Assembly: GCA_038206475.1 (NCBI GenBank)
Contig: JBBRAU010000001.1
Span: 71,235 to 135,234 of the forward strand
DNA: 64,000 nucleotides
Reading direction: 5' to 3'
Source of the DNA: Patescibacteria group bacterium
GTDB taxonomy: Bacteria; Patescibacteriota; UBA1384; JBBRAU01
In this document: one piece after another, positions 3,473-55,451 of the stretch
Layout of the letters: every line of letters begins with the position of its first letter
Numbering within the stretch: position 1 is the stretch's first letter
Position numbers and translations under genes: made by a program
The notes under the pieces: generated by a model
Told to the model about the DNA's origin: nothing
Database searches by the model: none
Seen by the model: only the letters and a program-made list of their open reading frames with translations

Positions 3473-3563
<91 letters not shown>

Positions 3564-3575
3564 AGATGCGTGTTG

Positions 3576-9056: not shown

Positions 9057-9345
9057 GCCACTCGGGAGTGTGCTTAGACGAGCCGGCCAGAGCCGCCGCG
9101 AGCTCTCGGCGGCTCATATTTGCGCATTCGCTGAGGCGATGGGAGATGGCCGTTTTCGCGCTAAGAGCTATAAAAATGGTGTTTTAACGCTTGCTGCGCC
9201 TAGCGCCGCCGCCGCCCATAGTTTGAGTTTAGAGACGACGCATTTACAAACCGAAATTAATACATATTTTGGGGGAAAAGCGGTACGCCAAATTCGCGTT
9301 CGGCCAGAATCAAAAGTCAATAACCAAAGTGAATATGGTCAATAA
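9046..9345 (+). CDS. DUF721-like small protein downstream of recF
   Basis: Conserved position after recF. The ATG at 9046 overlaps the recF stop. 99 aa, basic. Confidence 0.5.
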   Translation: MSLEPLGSVLRRAGQSRRELSAAHICAFAEAMGDGRFRAKSYKNGVLTLAAPSAAAAHSLSLETTHLQTEINTYFGGKAVRQIRVRPESKVNNQSEYGQ

Positions 9346-12300: not shown

Positions 12301-13033
12301 CGAGGGCAAATACGTCCACTGCCTGGCCGAGAGTGTGGCTAGAGATAACCGGCACCTTACCCGGATCTTGCTCTCGTGAGAGGAGTGGCTCTTGCACACC
12401 GACCGGGGGGTTGGTGGCGTAGCCGTCGCGAATGGAGGCTTCAACGTGGCCGAACTGACGGCCCAGTTCATCGAGTAGTTGGATGACGCGGGCATCTACC
12501 TCGCAGTCGGCCGGCTTACTCTGGCAGGTTTGTAAATCAGTAATGTCGGTAGCTGGCAGTACGTAGCGGCCAAGCGCACTCTGGCCGCTACCGGTAGCTT
12601 TTGGCGCACTAGCCACGATGTTTTTGAGGGCAGTTTGTGCGCTTTGGCTGCTGGATAGCTTTTGGAAACTGGTGCGCGGCGTAGCCTGGTCGCTGCTGTT
12701 TTGCATTGAGACTGCCACGATAAAGAGCAGCAGAAGAAGAAGCAAGATGCCAACAACCCATACCCAGGGGTTGGCGACCGCAACTGTTTCGAGCAGTTTG
12801 GCGGCCGCCTGTTTGGCGATATTTTTTACTTCCGATTTAACCACTTTTTTCGTGGCGGCCTCTCCTTTTTTCACCAAACGCTGTGCCCCCTCCCGCACCG
12901 CCTCGGTCGGTGACTGATTGCCTGCAGGCGATTCCGTCTGATCTGCCGTTTCGTCTTGATCATCAATATCGTCAACCTCGGGCGGGGTTGTGGGTGGCGG
13001 AGTAGCGATGAGAGATTCTGGGTCACTGGCCAT
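9317..13033 (-). CDS. Giant secreted or surface protein: Pro-rich N-terminus, one TM anchor, long coiled or alpha region, C-terminal leucine-rich-repeat-like region
   Basis: ~1238 aa. The start was moved to the ATG at 13033 (MASDPESL), which has GGAGG 8 nt upstream. TM VWVVGILLLLLLLFIVAV. The C-terminal third has repeated L..L..L..L.N patterns (DLAALDSLRYLGELRQLGRLNISHLATLD..). Confidence 0.55.
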   Translation of the reverse strand: MASDPESLIATPPPTTPPEVDDIDDQDETADQTESPAGNQSPTEAVREGAQRLVKKGEAATKKVVKSEVKNIAKQAAAKLLETVAVANPWVWVVGILLLLLLLFIVAVSMQNSSDQATPRTSFQKLSSSQSAQTALKNIVASAPKATGSGQSALGRYVLPATDITDLQTCQSKPADCEVDARVIQLLDELGRQFGHVEASIRDGYATNPPVGVQEPLLSREQDPGKVPVISSHTLGQAVDVFALGTVSEVGSGRLIPTKLGWARSTNDDLNAAAIPLLKSLAQTLQPEAKTATDQSNAIALYQTFNQNYKKLPTFPSLLNQTEWQPVGVAWNSFIGSLRAERHQHDLRGQYDPTKPLNQLHAGQPNPLARLGFTSAFWPTQTQAAHWSAFFLTLDSTFSTLDKLVRESRTSVARRQALQPVVTAGQTVIEKAEKVHTAGQGDDSNADPLESALAENDFETIIIQTAQQGGDIDLNTVLQQVSKAAQNRHSQGGWTEQQESAAETVQQVNQIIDQAKQAKTDIQTVKQQLRDKFNQLTPQISLDPQTSAQIDQAMQVALAVKQLDEASIKQALQQTLNDRLKQWDVQSLLNQALSRVDPTVLSLSSTSPSSADSATIEESVIQALRSLNLSEAIISQSAVHDEINRTVQPILQRTNRSASDLRSAVSTSLRVLINQAVKNAQAAIDAQVTQQIVGLKSQYNDLKASLNKQALQAAAKQAVSQAISQSQIGQDIQAATDGLRQLNQVVDQYIKDANFDAAAVKQAMSRYVRQQYAEQITQPIKSAVAEAEAKAKQQAIDSLEKQLDQQFTPAEAAAIKQVLSGDISAESLANAAIDAYCNTTFGPIAGPIVAGVVKDLVGSFFGWGDSFSRDLDQYVSSVKDFNAAVTKYEQQNGGDLSKVLSVLATLDQLKGLGQAIDGMNNLPNPVGATADTPAIKALTNSLDSLQALSSLEALGNIQSGSDLPVTHDLAALDSLRYLGELRQLGRLNISHLATLDSTGAILDISDADIEPTDARTAVASALQSLHNLSALQYLQKLDVLYPHTTDTLKQYDSLSELAILGNLGDILANQSNTLARLQLNPLRLLGSDTFKLDKSIFSQLDGKAGLGLPSLSAWANPPVAGSYPSLTLSRLNSIDLLSFSDSSLASIAALGRGNLVSPDSADTAAIVEASRASQDVSLFRPAAQTAIHNALVFVYGLPINLQPRQSLSFDQDGPFDPENPAVGSILSQSVIDHIHFGY

Positions 13034-14195
13034 CTGGGGCCTCCGGGTCAACGCTCCAGAGCGTTTGGCCGCTCTCGAAGTACAAGCTGGTGTTGGCTGA
13101 CGGCCAGAGCAGCTTGTCGGGATGATGAGTCGTTGTGGCGGTATAGAACAGCGGAGTTTGTCGGCCGGCAGTATCAACACGCATTAGTTGGTCTGAGTTG
13201 CCAGTTTTCGGCACCGCCGCAAGCAGGTGGTTTTGGTTGTCAAAGGCAGTTTTAGTCAGTGTTGTGGTGATAGAGTCTCCGATGAGTTGGCCACGGGCTA
13301 CATTAACCAACTGGACTGACCGGCCGCCAATAGACAATGCGGCCAGTAAACCGCTACGTGCCAGTAAGAAGTCGGTTACGGTCGCGCCGGAGCTTAAGCC
13401 GGCCACTTCTTTGGTTAGCAGGTCAACGGCACGAAAACTTTGGTCAGCTACCAAGTACATATGGCCGCCGTCAGGGGCAAAACGCAGCCGGCTGACCGCC
13501 TTAATATCTGGCAGGACAATACTTTTACTAATGTGCTCAAAGGTGCTGTCAAAGAGTTGCAGCTGCAGCGGTTGGCTAGGCAATATTTGGATGGCGGCAG
13601 CCTGCTTGCCGTCGAAAGACCAAATCGGCTGGCTAAGCGAGTCGTCTAGCTTGCGCTCGGTTTGGTGCAATAGATCGCGGCGGTCAAAGCTAAACAAGCT
13701 ATATGCGCCGCTACGGCGGATGAGTGCCAGAAACCCATCGGGACTAAACTGAATATCGTCAGCCGGTGGGTTTAGTGTGCTTAAAATTGTCGTCAATCGG
13801 CTACCGTCCGGTGAACTAAAGAGCGGCGCTTGCACAATATAGCGGCCGCTTGCGGTCAAAAAGCGAATCGTTTGGCTGGTGACGAGCCAGTTGCCGCGGC
13901 TGCCACTGGCAGCCAACGGCTTTGGCTCAGGGATGCGCCGCAGATGCAGGGCAAAGCTGGTTGTCAGTAATGGTTTGATGGTGATGATTTGGCTGGTCGG
14001 CACATAGCCGTCATGGCTAACGGCTAGTTGATATTGACCCGGCCGCAGCCGGCTGCCGCTGGCAACGCTTTTGCCTTCCAGCTGAGCTGAACTGTCCTCT
14101 GGCCAAACTGCCAACGTCAATTTTCCTTGTCTGAGTAGCCAAACACTGCCGGCTAGCAGCGCAAGAATGATCACGACTACGCCAGAGCGTTTCAT
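13023..14195 (-). CDS. Secreted protein with N-terminal anchor and beta-propeller-like repeats (T4SS-cluster associated)
   Basis: N-terminal TM or signal MKRSGVVVIILALLAGSVWLL. Repetitive beta-strand-rich sequence. Overlaps the next gene by 4 nt. Confidence 0.45.
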   Translation of the reverse strand: MKRSGVVVIILALLAGSVWLLRQGKLTLAVWPEDSSAQLEGKSVASGSRLRPGQYQLAVSHDGYVPTSQIITIKPLLTTSFALHLRRIPEPKPLAASGSRGNWLVTSQTIRFLTASGRYIVQAPLFSSPDGSRLTTILSTLNPPADDIQFSPDGFLALIRRSGAYSLFSFDRRDLLHQTERKLDDSLSQPIWSFDGKQAAAIQILPSQPLQLQLFDSTFEHISKSIVLPDIKAVSRLRFAPDGGHMYLVADQSFRAVDLLTKEVAGLSSGATVTDFLLARSGLLAALSIGGRSVQLVNVARGQLIGDSITTTLTKTAFDNQNHLLAAVPKTGNSDQLMRVDTAGRQTPLFYTATTTHHPDKLLWPSANTSLYFESGQTLWSVDPEAPDGQ

Positions 14196-14878
14196 GTTTG
14201 AATCTTCCAGACAATGTGTAACTTGCTTGGGTCAAGGCCGATGCTTTTTACCCAGTTTAGAGCATCTTGCTTGGCATTATCTACGGCCTGGCTCCACTCG
14301 GCATCAGCCATCGGCCGATTGAGCGGCATGGTGATCGTAAAGGTGTAGCTGTCTTGTGCTTCGTCATAATCAACCAAGGTTAGCGGCGGCCCGGGCTCAT
14401 CCGGCGGCAGGTGTTTGAGGAGCGGATGGGCGTCAAGGTAGGCATCTTGGCGCGCCGCATACTGTTCGTCAGAACGACCAAGCAGCGTTATCGCGGCCTC
14501 GTCTTTGCTCGCTGCGTCAGTGGTTGTTGTGAAGTGAAAACGATATGTGCTGCGCAGTCGGCCAACGTGGACGGTGACGGTATATTGTGTACTCGCCTCA
14601 AGCACTGCGCTAGCCCAAAAAAACAGGGTCTTACTATTTGCACCGCTTGTTTTTGGTGCCCAGTCAGCTGTGGGCTGGCTGGTGACAATAACTGAGTTGG
14701 CTGACAGAGCGCGATTAAAAGTGAGTTGAAGCCCCTGGTCTAGCGGAACGTCTACGGCGCCGTCGAGAGGCAGTACGCTGGCCAATCGGGCTTGCCGGTG
14801 AGCGAGGAATAGAAAAATCGCAACTATCGCTAGCGCAATAACTCCGCCAAGAACAAGCCGGCGTTTGTCCATTATCAT
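14192..14878 (-). CDS. Membrane-anchored hypothetical protein (T4SS-cluster associated)
   Basis: N-terminal TM LVLGGVIALAIVAIFLFLA; ATGA overlap with the upstream gene. Confidence 0.45.
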   Translation of the reverse strand: MIMDKRRLVLGGVIALAIVAIFLFLAHRQARLASVLPLDGAVDVPLDQGLQLTFNRALSANSVIVTSQPTADWAPKTSGANSKTLFFWASAVLEASTQYTVTVHVGRLRSTYRFHFTTTTDAASKDEAAITLLGRSDEQYAARQDAYLDAHPLLKHLPPDEPGPPLTLVDYDEAQDSYTFTITMPLNRPMADAEWSQAVDNAKQDALNWVKSIGLDPSKLHIVWKIQT

Positions 14879-16113
14879 TGCTTTACCCTTCCCCAGCCTA
14901 GTGGAGTATCACCACCTCTTTTTCCAAGGCTGTTGCCTTGACGCGGGAAGTTGGCGGTCGTTTTGCTATGGACGTCTGATTGTCTCACTTCAATTTGGTT
15001 GTCAGAAACAGCGGTAATAACAGCCACGTGGCCAAACTTATTGGCCCGCCCATCGTTAATGAAGAGAGTATCTCCTGGCTGAGGAGCACCAGCTCCATTA
15101 TTGATATAGATTTGGTTTTTCTGAAAATACTCAGCCATATTTTGAACACCAAGCAGAGCGGTAATATTTGGCGTCAGAGGATGCCCGGCTTGCTGGTAGG
15201 CCAAAATCGGTAAGTAGGTGCACCACAGACGGCCGGTCTGTTTTGGAGCGCCTGGAGTAATGAGGTCGGGGAATCTTGGATCAAAAGCGATAATGTTGAC
15301 AGTCGTGCCAGGGTTGTCGATGCTTGGGAACGCACGGCGTTGCAGCTCATTGGCGATTCTAATAGCATTAGCCACCACTTGAGCTTGCAGACCGCTACTG
15401 GGGCCGCCTTGACTCTCAAAACCGACACAGGTGCCGGACAATGCTGTGAAGTTGCCGCTGGCGTCATAGACGGCTTGGTTGAGTAATGCGTAGACGGTGT
15501 AGGCGCCATTGCGGCTGTCGGTTTTGCCGAGAAAATTCATGTGTGTGTGGCCGGCGTCAATATTATTCATGACATAAGCCGAGCGGTCGGGGACAGGCGC
15601 GGAACCGGTGCCATTATAGCGCCAGAGCGCTTCTTTAATGAGTTCTGGGTCAGAGCTCAGTTTCTTGCCTCCGACCAGCTTGCCTTTTACTTTGTCGGTT
15701 AAGAAGGTGGCGGCTTTTAAGACGGCTTTTGGGAAATTACTCAGTGCTGGGTCATTTGGGTTCTGCAGATGCAGGTCATGCAGGCCCATTGGCCCTTCGC
15801 CATTGGGCGGGTTCGCTGGGCTCATGCCACTCTCGCGGTAATGCATACCGGCCAGCACCGCCCACGGTACGCCAGTCGCACTTTCGGCTTGCTTGTAAAC
15901 GGCGAGGTTGTGATTGAGGTTAGCCGTTACGTCTTTTTCGAATTCTTTATCAATATTGGCCCCAGCGCACTGCGTGTTGCTGAGCACGTTACCGGAGCTA
16001 TCGCCCGTGAGCGGCGTTGTGTCCGAGCCGCCGAGCAAGATGAGCACCCCGCCAACGGTGGCGACGCTAACTAAAATGATAAGTGCAATGCGGGTCATTA
16101 CGCTCCGTGACAA
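14875..16113 (-). CDS. Cell-wall hydrolase with lytic-transglycosylase-like and C-terminal CHAP domains (VirB1/PrgK/TraG-like)
   Basis: N-terminal TM, an ES-containing SLT-like segment (YRESGMSPANPPNGEGPMGLH) and a C-terminal CHAP-like segment (GDTLFINDGRANKFGHVAVITAV). Confidence 0.6.
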   Translation of the reverse strand: MSRSVMTRIALIILVSVATVGGVLILLGGSDTTPLTGDSSGNVLSNTQCAGANIDKEFEKDVTANLNHNLAVYKQAESATGVPWAVLAGMHYRESGMSPANPPNGEGPMGLHDLHLQNPNDPALSNFPKAVLKAATFLTDKVKGKLVGGKKLSSDPELIKEALWRYNGTGSAPVPDRSAYVMNNIDAGHTHMNFLGKTDSRNGAYTVYALLNQAVYDASGNFTALSGTCVGFESQGGPSSGLQAQVVANAIRIANELQRRAFPSIDNPGTTVNIIAFDPRFPDLITPGAPKQTGRLWCTYLPILAYQQAGHPLTPNITALLGVQNMAEYFQKNQIYINNGAGAPQPGDTLFINDGRANKFGHVAVITAVSDNQIEVRQSDVHSKTTANFPRQGNSLGKRGGDTPLGWGRVKQ

Positions 16114-44605: not shown

Positions 44606-44687
44606 GGCCCCAGCATAGAGCTTTTCTGTCTGTAGGCATACGCCCACTCGCGAAATATAGCGATTTATGGTAATTGTAGAGAAGCGA

Positions 44688-44775
44688 GCGCCTGTAGCTC
44701 AGTGGGATAACGACCCGTTGCGCAGCAACGGAACGTTTTCCACTTCGCGCTGCTGGAATTCAAGCTAGTCTCGGA
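44688..44775 (+). pseudogene. Degenerate partial duplicate of tRNA-Arg (first ~20 nt identical to the downstream tRNA 5' end)
   Basis: GAGCGCCTGTAGCTCAGTGG is identical at 44686-44705 and 44798-44817. The upstream copy then diverges and cannot form a D-stem or T-arm. Confidence 0.35.
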
Positions 44776-44799
44776 GCTAAAGCTCCAAGCCCATCTTGA

Positions 44800-44875
44800 G
44801 CGCCTGTAGCTCAGTGGATAGAGCGCTGCCCTCCGAAGGCAGAGGCCACAGGTTCAAGTCCTGTCAGGCGTACCA
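44800..44875 (+). tRNA. tRNA-Arg, anticodon CCG
   Basis: Manual fold: GCGCCTG acceptor, D-arm GCTC/AGTGGATA/GAGC, anticodon stem CTGCC with loop CTCCGAA, T-arm CACAGG/TTCAAGT/CCTGT, CCA encoded. Confidence 0.85.
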
Positions 44876-44921: not shown

Positions 44922-46514
44922 GTGAGTACTCATCACCTAAGCAAAAACATGACCAAAGAGCAGGAGCGCACAGAGTTGCACCGTGCTATTTGGCAGATTG
45001 CGAACGATCTGCGCGGAGCAGTGGATGGCTGGGATTTCAAACAGTATGTACTTGGAACGCTTTTTTATCGATTCATTAGCGAGAACTTGACGAACTACAT
45101 CAATGCCGATGAACGTCGCACTGGCAAACAAAATTTTGATTATACAGCGCTTGCCGACGAAGAAGCCGAGTTTGGTCGAGCCGATACGGTGAAAGAAAAA
45201 GGCTTCTATATCTTGCCAAGCGAGCTTTTTGTAAACGTATGCATAAATGCCCGCAGCAACGCCAACCTCAACGAAACGCTTTCTGTTATTTTTCGTAACA
45301 TTGAAAACTCCGCCAAAGGTGCAAGCAGTGAGGATGACCTTCGGGGCCTTTTTGATGACTTAGACGTGAACTCAAGTCGACTCGGAAACACGGTAGAAAC
45401 GAGAAATCGCAAGCTCGCCAAGTTGTTAGAAGCGATCGGCGAGCTTCGCCTCGGTGATTACGCGGATAATACTATTGATGCTTTTGGTGATGCATATGAG
45501 TTCTTGATGACCATGTACGCCTCGACGGCTGGCAAATCCGGAGGCGAATTTTTTACGCCACAGGAGGTCAGCGAGCTCCTCGCTGAAATTACCACTGTCG
45601 GCAAAAAGGAAGTAAACAAAGTTTACGACCCAGCCTGTGGGTCTGGCTCACTGCTCCTCAAATTCGCGAAGGTGTTGGGGCGAGAGAATGTGCGCCAAGG
45701 TTTCTTCGGTCAGGAAATCAATCTTACCACCTATAATCTCTGCCGTATCAACATGTTTCTGCATGATGTGAACTACAACCATTTTGATATTGCTCACGGT
45801 GATACACTTACCGATCCGAAACATTGGGACGACGAGCCGTTTGATGCCATCGTCTCTAATCCGCCTTATTCCATCCACTGGGAAGGTGATGCGGATCCCT
45901 TACTTATCAATGATCCGCGTTTTTCACCGGCCGGAGTGCTGGCACCAAAGAGCAAGGCTGACCTGGCATTTACTATGCACATGCTTTCGTGGCTTTCGAC
46001 CAGCGGCACAGCGGCCATCGTTGAGTTTCCTGGCGTTCTCTATCGCGGTGGTGCGGAGCAAAAAATCCGTAAGTACTTGATAGAGAATAATTACATCGAA
46101 GTCGTCATTCAACTTCCGCCCGATCTCTTTTTCGGCACCACCATTGCCACCTGCGTTATTGTGCTCAAGAAGAGCAAAAAGGACAACAAAACGCTCTTTA
46201 TTGATGCCTCGGCCGAATTTGTACGCAACGGCAATAAAAACAAACTATCACAAGCAAACCGCGCTAAGATTTTAGACGCGTTTACCGCACGCAATGATGC
46301 CGATTACTTTGCCAAATTAGTCGACAATAAAACGATTGCCGAGAATGAGTACAATATTGCCGTATCAAGCTATGTTGTGGCAGAAGACACCCGCGAGGTG
46401 GTGGATATTGCGGTGCTCAATACTGAGATCGCCCGCATTGTTGTGAGGCAGAATGAGCTCCGTACGGCGATTGATAAAATCGTCGTCGATATTGAGGGAA
46501 CAAAAGAACCATGA
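44922..46514 (+). CDS. hsdM: Type I restriction-modification system methyltransferase subunit
   Basis: HsdM N-terminal domain, SAM-binding DPACGSGSLL, catalytic NPPY (VSNPPYSIHW); 530 aa. Confidence 0.9.
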   Translation: MSTHHLSKNMTKEQERTELHRAIWQIANDLRGAVDGWDFKQYVLGTLFYRFISENLTNYINADERRTGKQNFDYTALADEEAEFGRADTVKEKGFYILPSELFVNVCINARSNANLNETLSVIFRNIENSAKGASSEDDLRGLFDDLDVNSSRLGNTVETRNRKLAKLLEAIGELRLGDYADNTIDAFGDAYEFLMTMYASTAGKSGGEFFTPQEVSELLAEITTVGKKEVNKVYDPACGSGSLLLKFAKVLGRENVRQGFFGQEINLTTYNLCRINMFLHDVNYNHFDIAHGDTLTDPKHWDDEPFDAIVSNPPYSIHWEGDADPLLINDPRFSPAGVLAPKSKADLAFTMHMLSWLSTSGTAAIVEFPGVLYRGGAEQKIRKYLIENNYIEVVIQLPPDLFFGTTIATCVIVLKKSKKDNKTLFIDASAEFVRNGNKNKLSQANRAKILDAFTARNDADYFAKLVDNKTIAENEYNIAVSSYVVAEDTREVVDIAVLNTEIARIVVRQNELRTAIDKIVVDIEGTKEP

Positions 46515-47530
46515 AACAGGACGCTCAGAACAATGACATCATCATTTATGAAGGCGAGAACGGCCAGCCGAAAATTGAGGTGCGTGTTGAGGGTGAAACC
46601 GTATGGCTTACTATTGACCAAATGGCCACGTTATTTAACAAAGGACGCTCAACGGTAAATGAGCATATCATCAACATCTATCACGAAAAAGAGCTAGTCG
46701 AGGCTGATTCTGTGAGAAAAATCGGTAATTCCGATTTTTCTACCAAACCCACAAACTACTATAATCTCGACGTTGTCATTTCTGTTGGTTACCGCGTAAG
46801 TTCTGTCCAGGGTACGCGCTTTCGCCAGTGGGCAACCGCACGCCTGCGAGAGTACATCGTCAAAGGCTTCACCATGGACGATGAGCGTCTCAAGAGTTCA
46901 GGTGGCGGAACGTACTGGAAAGAGCTTTTAGAACGCATTCGCGATATTCGGAGCAGCGAGAAGGCCCTTTATCGTCAGGTGTTGGATTTGTATGCGACAA
47001 GTCTAGACTACAACTCAAAAAGCAAAGAAACAGGAGAGTTCTTTAAAACGGTGCAGAACAAACTTCACTACGCCACGAACCAGCAAACTGCCACCGAGCT
47101 TATCCATGCGCGGGCTGATGCTAACAAAGACTTCATGGGACTCACCACCTTTGCCGGAACTATACCTAAGCGATCAGAGGTTTCCATAGCCAAGAATTAT
47201 CTGACCGAAGACGAGCTCTTTCGCCTGAACCGCTTGGTGTCTGCTTTTTTCGACCTTGCTGAAATCAAAGCGCAAGACCATATGCCGATGCATATGAAAG
47301 ACTGGATGGCGGAGCTCGACAAATTTGCTGGGATGTATGGTAAGGGCGTACTGAAAAATGCGGGTGTCGTGAGACATGACGCTGCCATGAAGAAAGCCGA
47401 CCGGGAGTACCGAAAATATCAGGCCAAAACCCTTTCACCCGTTGAAGAAGCATATTTGGCCACGATCAAGGCTTTGCAGAAAAAGGTGGAGAAAAAAGTG
47501 AAAGAGAGCAAGCCAAAGAGTAAAAAGTAA
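46511..47530 (+). CDS. RhuM-family protein embedded in the Type I R-M operon
   Basis: N-terminus DIIIYEGENGQPKIEVRVEGETVWLTIDQMATLFNKGRSTVNEHI resembles the RhuM N-terminal region. Position between hsdM and hsdS, with ATGA overlap to hsdM. Confidence 0.55.
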   Translation: MKQDAQNNDIIIYEGENGQPKIEVRVEGETVWLTIDQMATLFNKGRSTVNEHIINIYHEKELVEADSVRKIGNSDFSTKPTNYYNLDVVISVGYRVSSVQGTRFRQWATARLREYIVKGFTMDDERLKSSGGGTYWKELLERIRDIRSSEKALYRQVLDLYATSLDYNSKSKETGEFFKTVQNKLHYATNQQTATELIHARADANKDFMGLTTFAGTIPKRSEVSIAKNYLTEDELFRLNRLVSAFFDLAEIKAQDHMPMHMKDWMAELDKFAGMYGKGVLKNAGVVRHDAAMKKADREYRKYQAKTLSPVEEAYLATIKALQKKVEKKVKESKPKSKK

Positions 47531-47532
47531 TT

Positions 47533-48672
47533 ATGGCAAAAAATCAAAGCAAAATTGAGAAGCTGATTGCCGAGTACTGTCCCAACGAGGTGGAGTTTAA
47601 AAAGCTCGGAGAGGTCTGTGAAATTACTGATAATAAAAGGAGACCCGTAGCATCGAGTTTACGTGTAGCAGGCAAAATACCATACTATGGTGCAAACAAC
47701 ATACAAGACTATGTTGAAGGTTTCACACATGAAGGTGATTTTGTATTAATTGCTGAGGATGGATCCGCAAACTTAGAAAATTATTCAATCCAGTTTGCGA
47801 CCGGAAAGTTCTGGGCAAATAACCATGTTCATGTTGTTAGAGGATACGATAAATTAAATAATAGGTTTTTATTTCATTATTTAAGAAGCATGAAGTTTAT
47901 TCCATTCTTAACAGGTGGAACTCGTGCAAAGCTTACCAAAAGCAAGATGCTAGAAATAATAATCCCTATTCCGCCGCTTGCGGTGCAGGAGGAGATTGTC
48001 AACATTCTTAATAGCTTTACAGAGCTAGAAGCAGAGCTAGAAGCAGAGCTAGAAGCTAGAAAGATGCAGTACGAGCATTACCGCTCGGCACTTCTGACAT
48101 TTAACGAGGGGGGGGTACGGAGGCCGAGGCTTGATGAAGTATGCCAATCGATTCTCGCAGGCGGAGATTTGCCAGAAAATTATTCGAAGGGTCAAAATAT
48201 GCCAACCCAAGAACTTCCATTCCCCATATATTCAAACGGTTCCGATGATAAAGCGTTGTATGGCTATTCTGATAGCTACAGTATCGGTAGCGAGGCCGTA
48301 ACTATTTCGGCGCGTGGGACCATCGGCTACCACACGGTACGCAAAGCGAAATTCACACCGATTGTTCGTCTCATTACCCTTATTCCCAACACTGAAATTA
48401 TTTCACCAAGGTTTTTAAGCTACGCTCTCGATGTTACTGAAATTGGCCATAGCGGCGGTAGTATTCCACAGTTGACTGTCCCAAATGTCAAAAAAATTCA
48501 AATCCCTGTTCCTGAAATCGCCGAGCAAGAGCGTATCGTGTCTATTTTGGATAAGTTTAATGCACTCGTGAATGACATTTCCGTTGGCCTGCCGGCAGAG
48601 CTTGCTGCGCGTCGGTCGCAATACGAATATTATCGAGGTAAGCTCCTGACATTTAATGAAATGACAGTATGA
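47533..48672 (+). CDS. hsdS: Type I restriction-modification specificity subunit
   Basis: Two target-recognition domains separated and followed by conserved helical repeats (..QYEHYRSALLTFNEG and ..QYEYYRGKLLTFNE). The central region contains an ELEA x3 repeat. Confidence 0.85.
   Translation: MAKNQSKIEKLIAEYCPNEVEFKKLGEVCEITDNKRRPVASSLRVAGKIPYYGANNIQDYVEGFTHEGDFVLIAEDGSANLENYSIQFATGKFWANNHVHVVRGYDKLNNRFLFHYLRSMKFIPFLTGGTRAKLTKSKMLEIIIPIPPLAVQEEIVNILNSFTELEAELEAELEARKMQYEHYRSALLTFNEGGVRRPRLDEVCQSILAGGDLPENYSKGQNMPTQELPFPIYSNGSDDKALYGYSDSYSIGSEAVTISARGTIGYHTVRKAKFTPIVRLITLIPNTEIISPRFLSYALDVTEIGHSGGSIPQLTVPNVKKIQIPVPEIAEQERIVSILDKFNALVNDISVGLPAELAARRSQYEYYRGKLLTFNEMTV
48023..48058 (+). repeat. 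12-bp tandem repeat GAGCTAGAAGCA x3 (encodes ELEA x3) in the hsdS central spacer region
   Basis: Exact tandem copies seen directly in the sequence, inside the central conserved region between TRD1 and TRD2. Confidence 0.85.
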
Positions 48673-49334
48673 ACCAAATTATTTACATCCTCACTAATGA
48701 GTCAATGCCTGAATATATAAAAATCGGGTTTACTCATGGCGAGGTGAACGAAAGAATTAAGCAACTTGACAGAACGGGCGTGCCACTTCCTTTTGAAATT
48801 TACTACGCAGCTACTGTGGAGAATGCAGAGAATGAGGAGAAATGGCTACACTCTATTTTTGCTGACCGTAGAGCGCGCGATAGTCGTGAATTTTTCAGGA
48901 TGAGTCCGGAACACGCAACTCTTGCACTTAAGCGGGTTGAAATTACCGAGGAAAAAATAGAGAACATCCTAACTAAAGAGCAGGAAAAAGAAGTAGACAA
49001 GGCAAAAGAAAGAAGGGCGCGATTTCAGTTTGCTCAGTATGGAATTCCTGTCGGTTCTAAACTGACATTCACTAGAGACGAAGGTATCGTCGCTGAAGTT
49101 GTGGAGAACGATAAAATAAAAATTGGTGACAGCGTAAGCAGCCTATCCACCTGCGCGATGGAGCTGTTGGGGTATCAGAGACGGCCGCAGGGAACCTTAT
49201 ACTTCAAGTTCAAGGACGAGATATTAGATGACAGGCGAAAGAGAATGGATGAGGTGGAACCAACGCCAAAGGGCGTAGAAGCTGCTGGTGATGAGTGGAT
49301 GTCACAACAGGCAGAAATAGAACAAGGAAAATAA
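48669..49334 (+). CDS. T5orf172/GIY-YIG-like domain protein embedded between hsdS and hsdR
   Basis: N-terminus IIYILTNESMPEYIKIGFTHGEVNERIKQLDRTGVPLPFEIYYA fits the T5orf172 (GIY-YIG-like) pattern; 221 aa; ATGA overlap with hsdS. Confidence 0.5.
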   Translation: MNQIIYILTNESMPEYIKIGFTHGEVNERIKQLDRTGVPLPFEIYYAATVENAENEEKWLHSIFADRRARDSREFFRMSPEHATLALKRVEITEEKIENILTKEQEKEVDKAKERRARFQFAQYGIPVGSKLTFTRDEGIVAEVVENDKIKIGDSVSSLSTCAMELLGYQRRPQGTLYFKFKDEILDDRRKRMDEVEPTPKGVEAAGDEWMSQQAEIEQGK

Positions 49335-49335
49335 T

Positions 49336-52300
49336 ATGTCCACTAACAATAAATACCATCTTGTTTCTGAAAATACGCAAAGCACCGTTGTGGCCGAATT
49401 TGCACCAGACGGCGTTCGTGTGGCGCACTATCAAAGCGAAGCAGAACTAGAAAAAGCGCTTATTCAGCAGCTTGAAACACAGGCATATGAATACGTGGCC
49501 ATTGCTACTGAAGCCGACTTGGTGGCGAACCTGAGAAAACAGCTAGAGAAACTGAACAATTTTACGTTTGGCGATAGCGAATGGGAACATTTCTTTACTG
49601 GCGAACTTGCCAACCCGAATCAGAGTATTGAAGAAAAGACAGCGACTATTCAAGAGGACTACATTAAAAACCTTACGCGCGATGACGGCACAATCAAAAA
49701 TGTGTACTTGTTAAAAAAAGACAACATTCATAATAATAGCTTGCAGGTTACCAATCAGTACGCCACAGAAGACGGTATGCGGGCTAATCGCTACGATGTG
49801 ACAGTGCTTGTGAATGGTCTGCCAATGGTGCACATCGAGCTAAAACGGCGCGGTATAGCCATTCAAGAGGCCTTCAATCAGATTAATCGCTATCAGCGCG
49901 AAAGTTTTTGGGCGGCCAGTGGGCTATTCGAATATGTGCAGTTGTTTATTATTTCCAATGGTACTCACACCAAATACTACAGCAACACCACGCGTAAAGA
50001 ACACATTAAAGATGCAAGCGAAGGCGCGGCGAAACAAGGCAAGCGCTCAAGCAACAGTTTTGAATTTACAAACTGGTGGGCCGACGCCACTAACCGGCCA
50101 ATTTCCGATCTAATGGATTTTGCCCAGACCTTTTTTGCCAAACACACGCTTCTTAATATCCTCACTCGTTACTGCGTATTTACGACCGATCGACAGCTTC
50201 TGGTGATGCGCCCATATCAAATTGTGGCAACCGAACGAATACTGAACCGCATTGAGGTGAGTACAAATTATAAGCAGCTCGGCACCATAGAAGCCGGTGG
50301 GTATGTATGGCACACCACTGGGTCAGGGAAAACTCTGACAAGCTTCAAAACAGCCCTACAGGTGAGCAAACTGGCGTATGTAGACAAAGTGGTGTTTGTG
50401 GTTGACCGCAAAGATTTAGACTACCAAACTATGCGCGAATACGACAAGTTCGAGAAAGGCGCAGCCAACAGCAACACCTCGACGGCGGTATTAAAACGAC
50501 AGTTGGAAAATCCGCAAGCCCGAATCATTATCACAACCATTCAAAAGCTCGATCATTTCGTAAGCCGCAACGCCGGACACCGTATTTTTGACGGTCACGT
50601 CGTACTTATTTTTGACGAATGCCATCGCTCACAGTTTGGTGATATGCACGCCGCAATCACAAAGGCCTTCAAGAATTACCACATTTTCGGTTTTACGGGC
50701 ACGCCAATTTTTGCGGTCAACGCGTCCTCTGGAGGCCGTCCAGATTTCAAAACGACCGAGCAGGCCTTTGGCGATAAATTGCACACGTACACCATTGTAG
50801 ACGCGATTGCCGACAAAAATGTTCTACCGTTTAAGGTGGATTATGTTTCTACGGTTCGTGAAGCCGAGGATATTGAAGATAAAAAAGTAAGCGATATTGA
50901 TCGCGAGGCAGTGCTCGCTTCTCCAGAGCGTCTGGCGAATATTGTCGGTTATATTCGTGAGCATTTTGATCAAAAAACGAAGCGCAATAGCTTCTACAAA
51001 CTGAAAGACCGGCGGTTGGCCGGCTTTAATTCTCTCTTTGCCGTTTCGTCAATTGATGTCGCTAAGAAGTACTATGTTGAGTTCAAGCGTCAGCTCGCCG
51101 ACGCGCCAAGTGATAAGCGTCTCAAAATAGCGACCATATTCAGCTTTGGTGTCAATGACGATGATGCCGACGGTATGCTAGATGAAAACTCAGATGACAC
51201 GAGCGGGCTAGACGCAAGTTCACGGGACTTTTTGGAACATGCTATCGCTGACTATAATGCGATTTTTGGGACTTCGTACGACACGTCGTCCGACAAATTT
51301 TCCAATTATTACAAAGATGTGAGCTTGCGCGTTAAAGGCCGCGAGATTGATATTTTGATCGTCGTCAACATGTTTTTAACTGGCTTTGATGCAACAACGC
51401 TTAACACACTCTGGGTTGATAAAAACTTGCGACTTCACGGCCTATTGCAAGCTTTCTCGCGGACAAACCGTATTCTCAACAGCGTAAAGACTTTTGGCCA
51501 TATCGTGTGCTTCCGCAATTTAGAAAAGGCAACGAATGAATCAATTGCGCTTTTTGGTGATAAAGAAGCCAGAGGCGTTGTATTGCTAAAATCATATGCT
51601 GAATACTACGGGGGTTACGTGCACGGTGATAAGGCGGTGCTTGGCTATGCAAATCTCGTCGCTGAGCTGCTTGAGAAGTATCCTATTGGGCAGGCTATTA
51701 TTGGCGAACAAAGTCAAAAGCATTTTATCAGACTATATGGCGCAATTTTGCGTGTGCGGAACATTTTGACGACATTTGATGAATTTGTGGGCAACGAAAT
51801 TTTGACCGCGCGTGATGTGCAAGACTACCACAGCATGTACATTGACCTCTATAACGAATTTAGCAAAGGCGTGGAAGACGACAAAGAGAACATTATCGAT
51901 GACGTCGTATTTGAGATGGAACTGATCAAACAGATTGAAATAAATATTGACTACATTTTGGGGCTCATCAAACACTATCATGAAGATCATACTCAAAACC
52001 GTGAGCTTTTGGCGGATATCAACAAAGCAATCGACTCAAGTATTGAACTGCGAAACAAAAAGGATCTTATTAATCAATTTATTTTATCGCTCGACATACA
52101 CTCAGTGGTTGATGATGATTGGCAGAAGTTTGTCAACCAGAAAAAGACGGAAGAACTTGAGCAAATTATTGAGACCGAAGGGCTGGATCGCGATGCCACC
52201 TATACGTTTGTGCGAAACGCCTTCCGCGACGGAGGCGTAATGGTGACCGGCACAGACATCTCTCGTGTTCTGCCTCCGGTATCTCGCTTTTTAGCAACCG

Positions 52301-52395
52301 GCGAGCGTTCTGAGAAACGCAATAGCGTGCTCAATAAATTAACGAGTTTCTTTGAGCGATTCTTCGATATCTCCGGCGGTTCATTCACGGACTAG
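49336..52395 (+). CDS. hsdR: Type I restriction endonuclease R subunit
   Basis: N-terminal nuclease domain, DEAD-box helicase motifs (TGSGKTLT, DECHRSQ), 1019 aa. Confidence 0.9.
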   Translation: MSTNNKYHLVSENTQSTVVAEFAPDGVRVAHYQSEAELEKALIQQLETQAYEYVAIATEADLVANLRKQLEKLNNFTFGDSEWEHFFTGELANPNQSIEEKTATIQEDYIKNLTRDDGTIKNVYLLKKDNIHNNSLQVTNQYATEDGMRANRYDVTVLVNGLPMVHIELKRRGIAIQEAFNQINRYQRESFWAASGLFEYVQLFIISNGTHTKYYSNTTRKEHIKDASEGAAKQGKRSSNSFEFTNWWADATNRPISDLMDFAQTFFAKHTLLNILTRYCVFTTDRQLLVMRPYQIVATERILNRIEVSTNYKQLGTIEAGGYVWHTTGSGKTLTSFKTALQVSKLAYVDKVVFVVDRKDLDYQTMREYDKFEKGAANSNTSTAVLKRQLENPQARIIITTIQKLDHFVSRNAGHRIFDGHVVLIFDECHRSQFGDMHAAITKAFKNYHIFGFTGTPIFAVNASSGGRPDFKTTEQAFGDKLHTYTIVDAIADKNVLPFKVDYVSTVREAEDIEDKKVSDIDREAVLASPERLANIVGYIREHFDQKTKRNSFYKLKDRRLAGFNSLFAVSSIDVAKKYYVEFKRQLADAPSDKRLKIATIFSFGVNDDDADGMLDENSDDTSGLDASSRDFLEHAIADYNAIFGTSYDTSSDKFSNYYKDVSLRVKGREIDILIVVNMFLTGFDATTLNTLWVDKNLRLHGLLQAFSRTNRILNSVKTFGHIVCFRNLEKATNESIALFGDKEARGVVLLKSYAEYYGGYVHGDKAVLGYANLVAELLEKYPIGQAIIGEQSQKHFIRLYGAILRVRNILTTFDEFVGNEILTARDVQDYHSMYIDLYNEFSKGVEDDKENIIDDVVFEMELIKQIEINIDYILGLIKHYHEDHTQNRELLADINKAIDSSIELRNKKDLINQFILSLDIHSVVDDDWQKFVNQKKTEELEQIIETEGLDRDATYTFVRNAFRDGGVMVTGTDISRVLPPVSRFLATGERSEKRNSVLNKLTSFFERFFDISGGSFTD

Positions 52396-52505
52396 CCAAA
52401 GTCACCATACGTAAATGGCAAGAGTAGGGTTTGGGCATCTTGGAAAAATAGCTACTCTAAAGCGCGTTTTTTGACACTCTGCTCGCGCCTTGCTTGAGTG
52501 AAGTT

Positions 52506-55451
52506 ATGCCAGACGACCTCGTTCAACAAGTAAAGCAACGCCTTGACATCCTTGACTTGGTCCAAGGCTATGTTCAGTTGAAAAAAACCGGCATTAACTG
52601 GAAGGGCCTCTGCCCGTTCCACCAAGAGAAAACGCCGTCGTTTACCGTCAACCAAGAACGTCAGAGCTGGCACTGTTTTGGCTGCTTCCCGAAGGGTTCT
52701 CATGTAAAAACTCCAAGAGGTTTTTGCGATATTGACCAACTTCGAGCAGGAGACGTTGTTATCTCGGGGAAAGGGCAGGAAAAGTCCGTACTCACGACGC
52801 ATCGTCATATGTATAAGGGCGAGCTCGTCCGTATTTCTTTATGCAAGCTTGGTGGCGAAGTGGCGCTAACCGGGGATCATAAAGTATTCGCTTTACGCGG
52901 AGCGCCTTACACCAAAATCTATAAAAACTTCAGCCGACGCTTGAAGCGCTACCAACAACTGCCAGCGGACCAATATCGACAAAAGCTCGACCGCTACTTC
53001 CCTGTCGAAAAAGTGGAGGCACACGAGTTAACGATTGGCGATTTGTTATTATATCCAATCTCCTACAGGACCGAACCAATCTCTTCGCTAGTCCCTTGTG
53101 ACCATTTAACAAAAACATTCCGTCTTGGGCCGAAACCGAGTGATTTACCAAAAGAGCTCCCGATTACTGACAGTCTACTGAAATTACTCGGATACTATAT
53201 TGCTGAGGGTAGTAACCATCGTGCCTACATTCGATTTAGCCTCGGTGGCCATGAGCTGAAACTCGCTAAAGAGATTCAAGTCTTGCTCAAAGAAGTGTTT
53301 GGCCTGGTCTCTAGCATCCACGTTCGCCAAGGAGGCAAGCCCGGGATAGAGGTTACGTGCTGTCACGCTGCGCTAGCCGATATTTTTGGCAACTTGTGTG
53401 GCAAAGGGGCGGCCAATAAACACATCCCTTTTGAGCTTCGGCACTTGCCAGTAGGCCAACAGCAGGTGCTGCTTAACGCCATCTGGACGGGTGACGGTAC
53501 TGCTCGTGCTAAACATCGGTCACTTAAAATTGAACGCTCAATCGGCAGTATTTCGCAGACACTGGCCGAGCAAATAGTTGATATCTTGCTGCGCAGGCAT
53601 ATCTTTCCCTCGCTTCAGGTTATCCAAGCACATACGAGCGGCGATGGCGTCAAACACAGAATGGCCTACACTGTTGTTTGGGGAGAGGCTGGTGAGGATA
53701 AATACAATAGTGTCTACCAAGCGGCGGGCGGTACTCATTATTGGGTGTTGCCAGTTGTCCATATAGCAAAAGAACCCTTCTGCGACGAGGTGTTCAACCT
53801 GACGATTGAGGATGACCATTCGTATGTCGCGCGCAATTTCGCGGTTGCCAACTGCGGCGAGGGCGGGGACATTTTTACCTTTGTCGAAAAGATTGAACAC
53901 GTTGAATTTAAAGAGGCGCTGGAGCTGCTGGCTGGCCGGGTTGGGCTGGAGGTCAAACCGCAAACGCCGGTTGAGCGTCAGCAGAAGGGCGAAAAGGCGA
54001 AACTTGAGGAGCTATACCAGCTGGCCAGCCGCTTCTACCACGCGTTGCTCATTAACCATCCGCTTGGCCAAGCTGCCCGCGATTACCTCGCCAAGCGGGG
54101 TGTTTCAGCTGAGTCGGTCAAAGCGTGGCAATTGGGTGTGGCGCCCGACCACTGGGACGCCCTGCTCTCGGCACTGCAAAAGCGCGGTTTCACGGCCGAT
54201 GAGTTGGTCAAGGCCGGATTGGCCGTCAAAAATGAGCGCGGCAACATTTATGACCGCTTTCGGAACCGCTTGTTGTTCCCGATTATCACCGCCAGCGGCC
54301 AACCGGTCGCTTTCTCTGGCCGGGTGATAACGGCTGATCAAGAACCCAAATACTTAAACTCGCCTGAGAGCCTGCTCTATCGCAAGAGCAGTGTTGTGAT
54401 GGGACTGAATTTAGCCAAAGAGGCAATTCGGAAGGCCGGCCAAGTAATGGTGGTCGAAGGCAATTTAGATGTCCTTATTTGCCAGCAGTTTGGCCTGACC
54501 AACACCGTCGCTACCGGCGGCACGGCGCTAACGTCTGACCACCTGCGCTTACTGGCTCGCTACGCCCCAGTCGTTATTTTTGCCTTTGATGCGGACGCCG
54601 CCGGCCAGAAAGCGGCTGAAAAGGCGGCGCTGTTGGCGCTAGAGGTGGGCCTGGAGCCACGCTTCATTGCCTTGCCGGCCGGAGATGACCCAGACTCGCT
54701 GCTACGCCGGGATGAAGCCGCCTTCCGCCAGGCTATGGCTGCCGCTCTGCCGGCCGTGCCGTACTTTTTAGAACGGGCGCTCAATGAGTATGGCCAGGCT
54801 ACCGCACAAGCCAAAAAGCAGGTGGCGGCAGCGGTGGTGCCGTTGCTCCGCCGCATACACGATCCAGTCGAGCAGGCGGATTCATTGCAGCAGGTGGCCG
54901 ACCGACTGCATGTGCCACGAGAGGCCATAGAGAGTGCTGTTTCAGCTGAGACGAAGGCAAAAACGACCGTTCCGGTGGTAGCGGCGACCGCCCGCCGCGG
55001 TCCGCTCGAGCCAAGCCAGCGCTTGTTTGGCCTGCTGCTGCTCTCGGAACGGCCACTGCCACCGCTTGACCCACTGCTACAGGATAGTCCAGACAAAACG
55101 CTGCAGTTTTTGCAGGCTCGGCAGGCAGAGGGGATTGGCGACAAGATGAGTTGGGCGACGTGGCAGGCCAAGCAACCGCAGCCAATCCAGGCGCGTTTGG
55201 CCTCACTGCTGACCGTGGCGGCCGAAGCCTACGGTGAGTTGCCACAGGAGCAGTTCGAGGCTGAAATTACGCTGCTTTTGGCGGCGCTGCGTTCCCGGGT
55301 TCTTGAGCACCAGCAATCGGACCGCCAGGCCGAAATTCGGCTGGCCGAGCAGGCGGGCGACAAGGCGCGCGTACGCTCACTGCTGCAAGAGATGATGGAT
55401 GATTTGGTCATGCCCCCACCGGCCAGCGCGGATCCTCGTCAAAAAACATAA
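52506..55451 (+). CDS. dnaG: DNA primase DnaG interrupted by an intein
   Basis: Zinc ribbon CPFHQEKTPSF..WHCFG. The extein resumes CGEGGDIFTFV. TOPRIM (VVEGNLDVL) and a C-terminal helicase-binding domain are present. Start taken at ATG 52506 (MPDDLVQQVK); the ORF-track 52494 is TTG. Confidence 0.85.
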   Translation: MPDDLVQQVKQRLDILDLVQGYVQLKKTGINWKGLCPFHQEKTPSFTVNQERQSWHCFGCFPKGSHVKTPRGFCDIDQLRAGDVVISGKGQEKSVLTTHRHMYKGELVRISLCKLGGEVALTGDHKVFALRGAPYTKIYKNFSRRLKRYQQLPADQYRQKLDRYFPVEKVEAHELTIGDLLLYPISYRTEPISSLVPCDHLTKTFRLGPKPSDLPKELPITDSLLKLLGYYIAEGSNHRAYIRFSLGGHELKLAKEIQVLLKEVFGLVSSIHVRQGGKPGIEVTCCHAALADIFGNLCGKGAANKHIPFELRHLPVGQQQVLLNAIWTGDGTARAKHRSLKIERSIGSISQTLAEQIVDILLRRHIFPSLQVIQAHTSGDGVKHRMAYTVVWGEAGEDKYNSVYQAAGGTHYWVLPVVHIAKEPFCDEVFNLTIEDDHSYVARNFAVANCGEGGDIFTFVEKIEHVEFKEALELLAGRVGLEVKPQTPVERQQKGEKAKLEELYQLASRFYHALLINHPLGQAARDYLAKRGVSAESVKAWQLGVAPDHWDALLSALQKRGFTADELVKAGLAVKNERGNIYDRFRNRLLFPIITASGQPVAFSGRVITADQEPKYLNSPESLLYRKSSVVMGLNLAKEAIRKAGQVMVVEGNLDVLICQQFGLTNTVATGGTALTSDHLRLLARYAPVVIFAFDADAAGQKAAEKAALLALEVGLEPRFIALPAGDDPDSLLRRDEAAFRQAMAAALPAVPYFLERALNEYGQATAQAKKQVAAAVVPLLRRIHDPVEQADSLQQVADRLHVPREAIESAVSAETKAKTTVPVVAATARRGPLEPSQRLFGLLLLSERPLPPLDPLLQDSPDKTLQFLQARQAEGIGDKMSWATWQAKQPQPIQARLASLLTVAAEAYGELPQEQFEAEITLLLAALRSRVLEHQQSDRQAEIRLAEQAGDKARVRSLLQEMMDDLVMPPPASADPRQKT
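52683..53852 (+). mobile_element. Intein (390 aa) with LAGLIDADG homing endonuclease inserted in the DnaG zinc-binding motif
   Basis: Begins with Cys right after HCFG (CFPKGSHVKT..) and has a block-B-like TGDH. Two LAGLIDADG-like motifs are LLGYYIAEGS and LLNAIWTGDG. It ends ..DDHSYVARNFAVAN followed by extein Cys. Removing it restores HCFGCGEGGD. Confidence 0.7.

Follow-up and report, generated by a model that had tools for sequence, protein, structure and literature searches.

Gene organization of the locus

The subject of this study is a Type I restriction-modification (R-M) operon carrying two additional genes between its hsd genes, located on contig JBBRAU010000001.1 of a Patescibacteria group bacterium (assembly GCA_038206475.1), within a stretch of 64,000 nucleotides (positions 71,235 to 135,234 of the forward strand) that was analyzed as a whole and is hereafter referred to as the window. 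The list of open reading frames (ORFs) gave five co-directional genes on the plus strand in the order hsdM-rhuM-hsdS-T5orf172-hsdR (44949-52395), and the Pfam, NCBIfam and PADLOC assignments agreed with this list, confirming the arrangement noticed in a first-pass annotation of the sequence, that is, two passenger genes inside one Type I R-M operon. The first passenger, rhuM (46511-47530, plus strand), encodes a 339-residue protein of the RhuM family (Virulence_RhuM, PF13310; E=9.4e-101) that belongs to the PADLOC family PDC-S05 (E=2.5e-141). The second passenger (48669-49334, plus strand) encodes a 221-residue predicted nuclease of the PADLOC family PDC-S57 (E=1.7e-62), in which a T5orf172 domain (PF10544; E=3.8e-15) is followed by a domain with the predicted fold of RAMA. 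Both Pfam matches are above the cut-off, and the two family assignments of the first pass thus hold. The genes are tightly packed: an ATGA overlap, as claimed before and here read from the sequence, joins hsdM with rhuM (46511-46514) and hsdS with the T5orf172-RAMA gene (48669-48672), and the gap is 2 nt between rhuM and hsdS and 1 nt between the T5orf172-RAMA gene and hsdR.

As judged from sequence, the Hsd subunits are unambiguously canonical and of the EcoR124 type. HsdM, the methyltransferase subunit (44949-46514, plus strand), matched TIGR00497 (E=1e-226) together with the N6_Mtase and HsdM_N models of Pfam; its ORF extends to an alternative start, GTG, at 44922, but the start is likely ATG at 44949, which gives 521 residues, the length of the NCBI cluster representative. 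HsdS, the specificity subunit of 379 residues (47533-48672, plus strand), carries two target-recognition domains (Methylase_S in two stretches, E=6e-54). HsdR, the restriction and translocase subunit of 1019 residues (49336-52395, plus strand), matched TIGR00348 (E=2e-169) and includes the nuclease (HSDR_N), the superfamily 2 (SF2) motor (SWI2_SNF2), a T1R_D3-like domain and the EcoR124-type C-terminal domain (EcoR124_C, E=3e-64). The operon is low in GC (45.5%), the remainder of the window having 53.9% and the genes on either side 55-56%, and it lies between a tRNA-Arg gene on one side and dnaG on the other; the locus is therefore a small horizontally acquired island.

Both passenger genes are intact. 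In comparison with their homologues, the proportion of non-synonymous differences (pN) was 0.09-0.14 and that of synonymous differences (pS) 0.70-0.89, the latter being saturated, in the same range as for hsdM and hsdR; by this sequence measure both passengers are under strong purifying selection and as constrained as hsdM and hsdR. A look-up of exact protein matches gave only two short Logan contigs from SRR19962014.

Variable cargo on a single hsd lineage

Operons of the same hsd lineage were found in other genomes with DNA identity of 74-76%, and the window HsdM is 82-87% identical in amino acid sequence to that of three of them (loci L003, L016 and L048), while for hsdS the central conserved region alone aligned at the DNA level, as expected for variable recognition domains. 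The cargo of these operons differs: the T5orf172-RAMA gene is located upstream of hsdM in L003 and L016, and not between hsdS and hsdR as in the window; L048 carries rhuM with an OLD-like ATPase gene; and the window carries rhuM with the T5orf172-RAMA gene. One hsd backbone thus bears different cargo in different genomes. The block of DNA similarity between the T5orf172-RAMA gene of the window and that of L003 begins and ends within 1 nt of the ORF ends.

The L048 operon (5317-15002; also L049), with HsdM 82% and HsdR 74-81% identical to those of the window, is apparently decaying, hsdM being split into two ORFs and hsdR being interrupted by an IS1595-family transposase gene. The cargo embedded in L048 and L049 is composed of rhuM after hsdM, the OLD-like AAA_15/TOPRIM ATPase gene and an ORF of 195 residues.

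The RhuM passenger

The RhuM protein matched PF13310 with 336.8 bits (cut-off 33.7) over profile positions 17-248 of 252, and PDC-S05 with 468.7 bits over residues 5-329 of the 330-position profile, that is, at full length. Two parts were distinguished: a predicted winged-helix DNA-binding domain at approximately residues 30-95 (46598-46795, plus strand), in the N-terminal region that resembles DNA-binding domains of the MerR, Xis and Par types, and the RhuM domain proper, all-alpha, at residues 77-307 (46739-47431, plus strand). Some 230 residues are conserved beyond the DNA-binding domain, many polar positions among them being invariant across homologues of 39-100% identity, and this conservation suggests that the all-alpha domain is an enzyme or a toxin. 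For RhuM alone pN was 0.13-0.14 with pS saturated. Outside the winged helix the predicted structure is helical and gave no convincing structural match, and no Fic/DOC structure was among the matches listed. Membership of RhuM in the Fic/DOC toxins, a kinship suggested by gene position and domain fusions, was not supported, the Fic fold being absent from these listed matches and the motif HxFx(D/E)GNGRxxR not being found. Sequence searches of the PDB with RhuM, with the T5orf172-RAMA protein and with the isolated C-terminal domain of the latter returned chance-level matches only; PHROGs contains no RhuM family, and the T5orf172 domain matched just unnamed or endonuclease families therein. A profile search gave no wider set of homologues than that described here.

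The homologues of RhuM are numerous (more than 8000 matches), the best of them being 66-80% identical and for the most part of patescibacterial or other uncultured origin; uncultured Patescibacteria, environmental metagenomes and phage contigs are the sources of the closest relatives. In a set of 80 metagenome loci, rhuM lies inside an hsd operon in 11, beside hsd genes in another 11 and without any hsd gene within 6 kb in 58; of the 31 loci in which each flank extends for 3 kb or more, 11 (35%) are linked to hsd genes. The usual order of the embedded loci, with gaps of a few nt, is hsdM-rhuM-hsdS, which was observed in about 15 metagenome loci; the same order with the same 4-nt overlap of hsdM and rhuM is present in the annotated RefSeq plasmid pCNAC48 of Aliarcobacter, of which the RhuM is 48% identical to that of the window. 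Elsewhere rhuM stands alone behind a gene for an XRE-type helix-turn-helix (HTH) protein (L044-L047), and of 22 relatives on viral contigs two have hsd-like genes nearby. From this mixture of hsd-linked, standalone and viral contexts it follows that RhuM is strongly enriched in Type I loci, yet is not dependent on them.

A different arrangement was observed in L039-L043, in which three rhuM paralogues lie within about 8 kb (in L039 at 637-1656, 3067-4089 and 7951-8985; similar arrays also in L060 and L144). The products are 76%, 40% and 39% identical to the window RhuM, the contigs are Patescibacteria-like, and genes for an MFS transporter, a polysaccharide deacetylase, MliC and NUDIX proteins lie between the paralogues, no R-M genes being in view.

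RhuM has been connected with R-M systems before. In 2013 Anantharaman et al. noted RhuM-like genes in R-M operons and proposed a multilayer defence in which RhuM serves as a toxin alongside R-M and PrrC-like proteins (PMC3710099). Statistical enrichment of RhuM next to invertible Type I hsdS genes was also reported (PMC9881135). In a plating experiment, one gene of the PDC-S05 family, introduced alone into E. coli B, decreased the plating of T7 and T5 about 1000-fold and that of T4 about 10-fold (bioRxiv 10.1101/2024.09.26.614923); the likeness of the window RhuM to this system is its full-length match to the family profile, the activity having been reported for one other representative.

The T5orf172-RAMA passenger

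The T5orf172 domain of the second passenger, a nuclease domain of the GIY-YIG superfamily (Pfam), covers residues 4-90 (48678-48938, plus strand), with 56.7 bits against PF10544 (cut-off 20) and with MUG113 as a further match (E=6e-14), and the full-length alignment with PDC-S57 extends from residue 2 to 195 (profile positions 5-208 of 212). Among 21 homologues, R29 and E74 never vary, and Y6 and Y16 are kept in at least 90%; we take these residues to occupy the positions of the GIY...YIG...R...E signature as in I-TevI. The model match together with the conserved tyrosines, arginine and glutamate places the domain in the GIY-YIG superfamily, the catalytic assignment of the residues being a putative one by comparison with I-TevI and Odn. 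Odn of phage ICP1, a characterized T5orf172 nuclease, keeps the catalytic arginine and glutamate and is an active nuclease directed by a separate DNA-binding domain (PMC8263062).

The C-terminal part of the protein (48975-49253, plus strand) is predicted to adopt the fold of the RAMA domains of CcrM and MPND, the two for which structures are covered in PMC9963953; a Foldseek search independently gave CcrM alone. The Pfam RAMA model (PF18755) gave no match even at E<=10 with the whole protein, with the isolated C-terminal 101 residues or with five relatives, and because of this failure of direct detection RAMA was assigned through the fold search and a transitive sequence match. The 101-residue domain was used as a phmmer query against the full library, yielding 482 representative clusters, of which 108 were scanned for domains: T5orf172 was present in 79 of the 108, others carried Mrr_cat, TIR or HARE-HTH domains, and four reached the Pfam RAMA model. 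In protein P0309 the phmmer match (residues 269-365, E=1e-16) coincides with its Pfam RAMA match (292-361), and P0291 matched the Pfam RAMA model with 41.3 bits, above the cut-off. On the basis of the fold and this transitive match, the second passenger is a T5orf172-RAMA fusion. Fusions of RAMA with T5orf172 were already noted, with the same types of partner, by Iyer et al. 2016 (PMC4738411).

In the wider set of clusters, the RAMA-like domain is repeated in two to five tandem copies in proteins of 300-983 residues (P0290, P0293, P0295 and P0304), often after a single T5orf172 domain, and such multi-RAMA nucleases might read spaced features on DNA. It is fused also to TIR (P0309) and to Mrr_cat (P0351).

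The proteins of this family, about 197-221 residues in length, are 64-85% identical across Saccharibacteria, Nomurabacteria, Magasanikbacteria and WWE3, and the same identity is found with members from Gammaproteobacteria, Acidimicrobiales, Bdellovibrionales, Flavobacteriaceae and Omnitrophota. Since the synonymous sites are saturated while pN is low (0.09-0.12), this spread does not represent recent transfer.

Neighbourhoods of the T5orf172-RAMA genes

For the genomic context of this family, we examined 33 loci of close relatives in species-representative genomes. An R-M or DNA methyltransferase module was found within one to three genes in 26 of the 33 (79%), while the other seven mostly lie at contig ends or could not be resolved. 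The linked modules belong to different classes: 11 of the 26 include an EcoRI-like methylase and/or a GmrSD_N-HNH (DUF262/HNH) protein, 10 are Type I with at least two types of HsdR, four are sets of D12/N6_N4 methyltransferases, including an AlwI-type system, and one is a methyltransferase fusion. Where the arrangement is operonic, the junction with the neighbouring R-M gene is at most 10 nt, and the identity of the nuclease stays at 64-85% as its neighbour switches between Type I genes, EcoRI-like methylase plus DUF262/HNH, the AlwI-type system and other methyltransferases. The contexts of insertion are many, and no flanking target sequence is common to them. Association with hsd genes, for which the neighbourhoods of homologues had been proposed as a check, is thus frequent for both passengers, rhuM being located in or beside hsd genes in 22 of 80 loci and the T5orf172-RAMA gene adjoining Type I genes in 10 of 33. 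Plasmid relatives at a distance of 32-37% identity follow the same R-M-linked pattern: in a Prevotella plasmid an HTH gene is followed by the GIY-YIG gene and a WYL protein gene, with a methyltransferase gene further on, and in a Sphingomonas plasmid the relative adjoins an N6-methylase and a BsuBI/PstI endonuclease. Among 2.9 million viral contigs only two distant relatives were detected.

In 12 of the 33 loci (L004-L007, L010-L013, L016, L018, L020 and L025) a small gene for an XRE-type HTH protein, all of one family, ends 3-5 nt before the start of the T5orf172-RAMA gene (HTH_3 was confirmed by Pfam for L016), and a relative of 34% identity precedes the standalone rhuM in L044-L047. The sequence relationship suggests that HTH plus effector, with a shared regulator, is the free-living form of both passenger modules. 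The window lacks the small XRE-type HTH gene that a nuclease module under C-protein control would have directly upstream of the nuclease gene.

In seven loci (L002-L004, L007, L011, L013 and L030) a large serine recombinase is encoded no more than a few kb from the T5orf172-RAMA gene, usually upstream and in divergent orientation, a hint that in these genomes the block of T5orf172-RAMA plus R-M genes travels on an integrative element. Three other loci show the nuclease gene within compact strings of several defence genes: in L033 (3-4988) it is followed by Ymh (HEPN), EcoRI-like methylase, GmrSD_N-HNH and reverse transcriptase genes; in L031 (6039-10594) it follows D12 methylase, AIPR and N6_N4 methylase genes; and in L022 (8016-14553) it stands between AbiEii and a 970-residue fusion of N6_N4 and C5 methylases. 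A role as cognate restriction endonuclease of the neighbouring methylase was considered and rejected; the nuclease accompanies methylases of differing specificity classes, and the neighbouring systems already own nucleases (HsdR, DUF262-HNH, AlwI).

Comparison with known embedded systems

The idea that genes embedded in R-M operons serve in defence is not new, the PDC families of PADLOC being defined by the same logic: Payne et al. derived 145 such families by 'guilt-by-embedding', using genes located inside the loci of Type I R-M, BREX and DISARM systems (10.1101/2024.01.29.577857). Several systems may be set beside the window locus. PrrC of the EcoprrI Type IC locus is likewise encoded by an extra gene between the hsd genes of an EcoR124-type locus, forming a second layer of defence (PMC12707154), but it is an anticodon nuclease of ABC-ATPase/HEPN architecture whose activity the Hsd complex gates, and neither an ABC-ATPase nor a HEPN anticodon-nuclease domain, as in PrrC and RloC, was detected by Pfam or PADLOC in either passenger. 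In addition, PrrC is almost exclusively embedded (10.1101/2024.01.29.577857), in contrast to RhuM, which is mostly outside hsd loci (58 of 80), and to the T5orf172-RAMA gene, which is linked to Type I systems in 10 and to other R-M systems in 16 of the 33 loci. TgvAB also interrupts a five-gene Type I cluster with two genes, is independent of HsdR and targets modified phages that escape the Type I system (PMC11411939); it is one two-protein system of DUF262/DUF1524 type, unlike the window, in which two unrelated single-gene modules occupy two junctions. Of the systems compared, TgvAB offers the closest functional analogy to the T5orf172-RAMA passenger. The GmrSD-like RloF is another precedent for an independent system embedded in a Type I operon.

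The closest gene arrangements were found in pCNAC48 of Aliarcobacter cryaerophilus and in CP081899.1. In the former, the overlap of hsdM and rhuM is followed by hsdS, extra cargo and hsdR as in the window, but the RhuM proteins are distant and the other cargo is a KAP NTPase and an ATP-binding protein; in the latter, one RhuM and one GIY-YIG coding sequence lie between the core genes of a Type I locus (PMC9881135), a likeness taken from the published description only. With respect to protein architecture, the window nuclease resembles PDC-S57 and the GIY-YIG-RAMA fusions of Iyer et al. 2016 and Helbrecht et al. 2024 in the combination of T5orf172 and RAMA and in the association with N6-adenine methyltransferases, the difference being that the Pfam RAMA model misses the window subfamily. 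It also shares with Odn and with the winged-helix (wH)-GIY-YIG Type IV enzymes Ahi29725I and Apa233I the combination of a GIY-YIG/T5orf172 cleavage module and a separate DNA-reading domain, which is RAMA in the window protein but a winged helix or RepA_N in the others. Dam-methylated DNA is cut by the wH-GIY-YIG enzymes, whose genes in some cases adjoin those of EcoRI-like methylases, and the GIY-YIG-RAMA fusions were proposed as possible Type IV readers of N6-methyladenine (6mA) (PMC11037411). The likeness of the passenger to Type IV enzymes is thus one of architecture, a nuclease plus a putative reader, together with this suggestion from the literature.

Interpretation of the two passengers

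Taken together, we consider it probable that the passengers are two autonomous single-gene defence modules that were captured by, and are expressed from, an EcoR124-type Type I operon, giving layered immunity. This interpretation is favoured because the cargo varies on the same hsd backbone and both cargo genes occur as free units of HTH plus effector, and because a PDC-S05 RhuM works alone in the one reported test and the T5orf172-RAMA protein keeps its sequence as the class of R-M system changes. The horizontally acquired operon would have received both passengers as exact ORF cassettes, which would then use the transcription of the operon and, through the ATGA overlaps, probably translational coupling. 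RhuM would bind DNA with its N-terminal winged helix and act alone after infection, and the T5orf172-RAMA protein would be a DNA nuclease effector complementing the R-M system, with RAMA as the module binding the DNA backbone; in its most likely version, this would be a Type IV-like attack on DNA that the Type I system cannot restrict, such as phage DNA that is modified or carries dense adenine methylation. The sequence analysis establishes the order of the genes, their domains, the predicted fold of RAMA, the purifying selection and the patterns of genomic association, and from these we infer co-transcription, the anti-phage activity of the window copies and the nuclease activity and choice of substrate of the T5orf172-RAMA protein.

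Several points weigh against this interpretation. The AlphaFold2 (AF2) models of both passengers are of low confidence, with a mean predicted local distance difference test (pLDDT) of 63-64, that of RhuM (64) leaving residues 109-152, the region supposed to be catalytic, essentially unmodelled. At 14 positions conserved elsewhere in the family, the window copy of T5orf172-RAMA differs from the consensus, for instance N79S, Y82H and H120Q. E. coli B, the host of the PDC-S05 test, has a Type I system of its own, so that full independence from Type I is unproven. Scans for promoters and terminators throughout the operon, internal sites included, gave scores at the level of shuffled sequence, and the single transcription unit is for this reason deduced from the spacing of the genes alone. 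A full-text search of the literature found no paper naming PDC-S57, and with respect to the reader domain, the preference of RAMA for 6mA was not confirmed for MPND, while the RAMA of CcrM contacts the backbone only (PMC9963953). A 6mA-dependent nuclease beside N6-adenine methyltransferases, moreover, risks cleavage of its own genome. Finally, T5orf172-RAMA is linked to R-M genes more tightly than simple co-location would lead one to expect, and this linkage could reflect a functional dependence on the methyltransferases.

A second, clearly less probable interpretation for this passenger is that T5orf172-RAMA is more than co-located cargo, namely a companion dedicated to adenine-methylating R-M systems at large and widely transferred. 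It is suggested by the conservation of the nuclease at the level of HsdM and HsdR, by its frequent XRE or C-protein-like regulation and by its location at most 10 nt from at least four unrelated R-M architectures. In such a companion, RAMA would sense the state or density of adenine methylation, and the nuclease would destroy phage genomes that escape R-M by self-hypermethylation, the sparsely methylated host DNA being spared.

Somewhat less likely still is a guard of the PrrC kind, in which one or both passengers would be held inactive by the Hsd complex and released as toxin or nuclease when an anti-restriction protein of the phage disables the Type I enzyme. The tight, probably translational coupling with hsdM and hsdS, the recurrence of the order hsdM-rhuM-hsdS in metagenomes and in the distant pCNAC48, the comparable embedding of PrrC, the toxin role proposed for RhuM alongside R-M and PrrC-like proteins and the R-M linkage of T5orf172-RAMA are all consistent with a guard. 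However, 65-72% of the close relatives of RhuM lie away from any hsd gene and viral contigs commonly carry RhuM, a PDC-S05 gene gave protection by itself in a heterologous host, neither passenger has the architecture of PrrC or RloC, and the high identity of T5orf172-RAMA beside unrelated R-M types argues against an interface co-evolved with the Hsd proteins in particular. The first-pass annotation had put forward both passengers as candidates for an R-M-coupled defence; their status as defence candidates gained support from the matches to PDC-S05 and PDC-S57, but coupling in the sense of PrrC did not, because a PDC-S05 representative protected E. coli as a single gene and the T5orf172 protein is so little altered by a change of neighbour, and about two-thirds of the close relatives of RhuM are standalone, on prophage-like contigs or in tandem arrays.

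T5orf172-RAMA might alternatively be a selfish hitch-hiker of no benefit to host defence, either like a homing endonuclease or as a mobilizer of R-M genes, since T5orf172 domains are typical of free-standing homing-endonuclease genes of phages (PMC8263062), the T5orf172-RAMA gene changes place, as a unit bounded exactly by its ORF ends, among hsd operons that are collinear in other respects, and serine recombinase genes are located nearby in seven loci. We regard this as unlikely: purifying selection acts on the gene with the same strength as on hsdM and hsdR, the synonymous sites being saturated, unlike the decay cycle of homing genes, no target sequence is shared by the many insertion contexts, the gene is under an XRE regulator in 12 loci like a toxic host effector, and relatives are almost lacking from viral contigs.

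Hardly more probable, and if anything slightly less so, is a role of the passengers as regulators of the operon that tune restriction against modification after transfer, RhuM by means of the winged helix and T5orf172 as a DNA-binding protein that was domesticated and lost its nuclease activity. The MerR-, Xis- and Par-like N-terminus of RhuM and the position of both genes inside the transcription unit would fit such a role, and a T5orf172 protein, CapR of the V. cholerae satellite PLE, has reportedly been domesticated as a repressor. Yet the arginine and glutamate at the catalytic positions are invariant in the T5orf172 family, RhuM has its long conserved region with many invariant polar positions past the DNA-binding domain, members of both families are found at a distance from R-M systems or with an XRE regulator of their own, and the related hsd operons L003 and L016 are structurally functional without either gene. 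That RhuM is a virulence factor unrelated to phage defence, as implied by the naming of the family after Salmonella pathogenicity island SPI-3 (cited in PMC3710099) and by its listing as a virulence gene in several genome papers, is very improbable, considering its environmental and phage-borne relatives, its enrichment next to Type I R-M genes (PMC9881135), the blocking of phages by a representative (10.1101/2024.09.26.614923) and the lack of a secretion signal or effector context at the window locus.

Under the preferred interpretation of two captured defence modules, the locus is one more well-preserved case of a Type I operon carrying added immune genes, and its compact set of five genes makes a construct suited to testing layered defence. 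What is new lies in the uncharacterized T5orf172-RAMA family and in its unusually strict linkage to R-M systems irrespective of class: PDC-S57 can now be described as a predicted T5orf172-RAMA nuclease with relatives tied to several unrelated kinds of R-M and methyltransferase systems. As RAMA is predicted to read 6mA, which was unconfirmed for MPND, the small bacterial T5orf172-RAMA proteins offer a tractable system for finding what RAMA senses. For RhuM, we argue that the label of virulence protein is misleading, and the predicted DNA-binding winged helix plus the conserved putative catalytic domain provide an outline for mechanistic work.

Borders of the island

The left border of the island is formed by the gene for tRNA-Arg(CCG) (44800-44875, plus strand; ARAGORN, and 73 bits with the Rfam tRNA model), which ends 73 nt before the start of hsdM and was the sole match in the Rfam scan. 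No integrase gene was found in the neighbourhood of the operon and no recombinase gene near it. An exact 20-nt copy of the 5' end of this tRNA gene (44686-44705 versus 44798-44817) lies 112 nt upstream of the intact gene and may be the scar of an earlier rearrangement or integration at tRNA-Arg(CCG); the search for att sites gave this copy as the sole tRNA-related repeat, with no repeat on the dnaG side. Directly downstream of the operon, dnaG (52494-55451) appears to be interrupted, after the part for the zinc ribbon and before that for the catalytic core, by an intein that carries a homing-endonuclease domain of the LAGLIDADG type, as indicated by a match to LAGLIDADG_3 (E=1.6e-9) and weak matches to Hint_2 and Intein_splicing.

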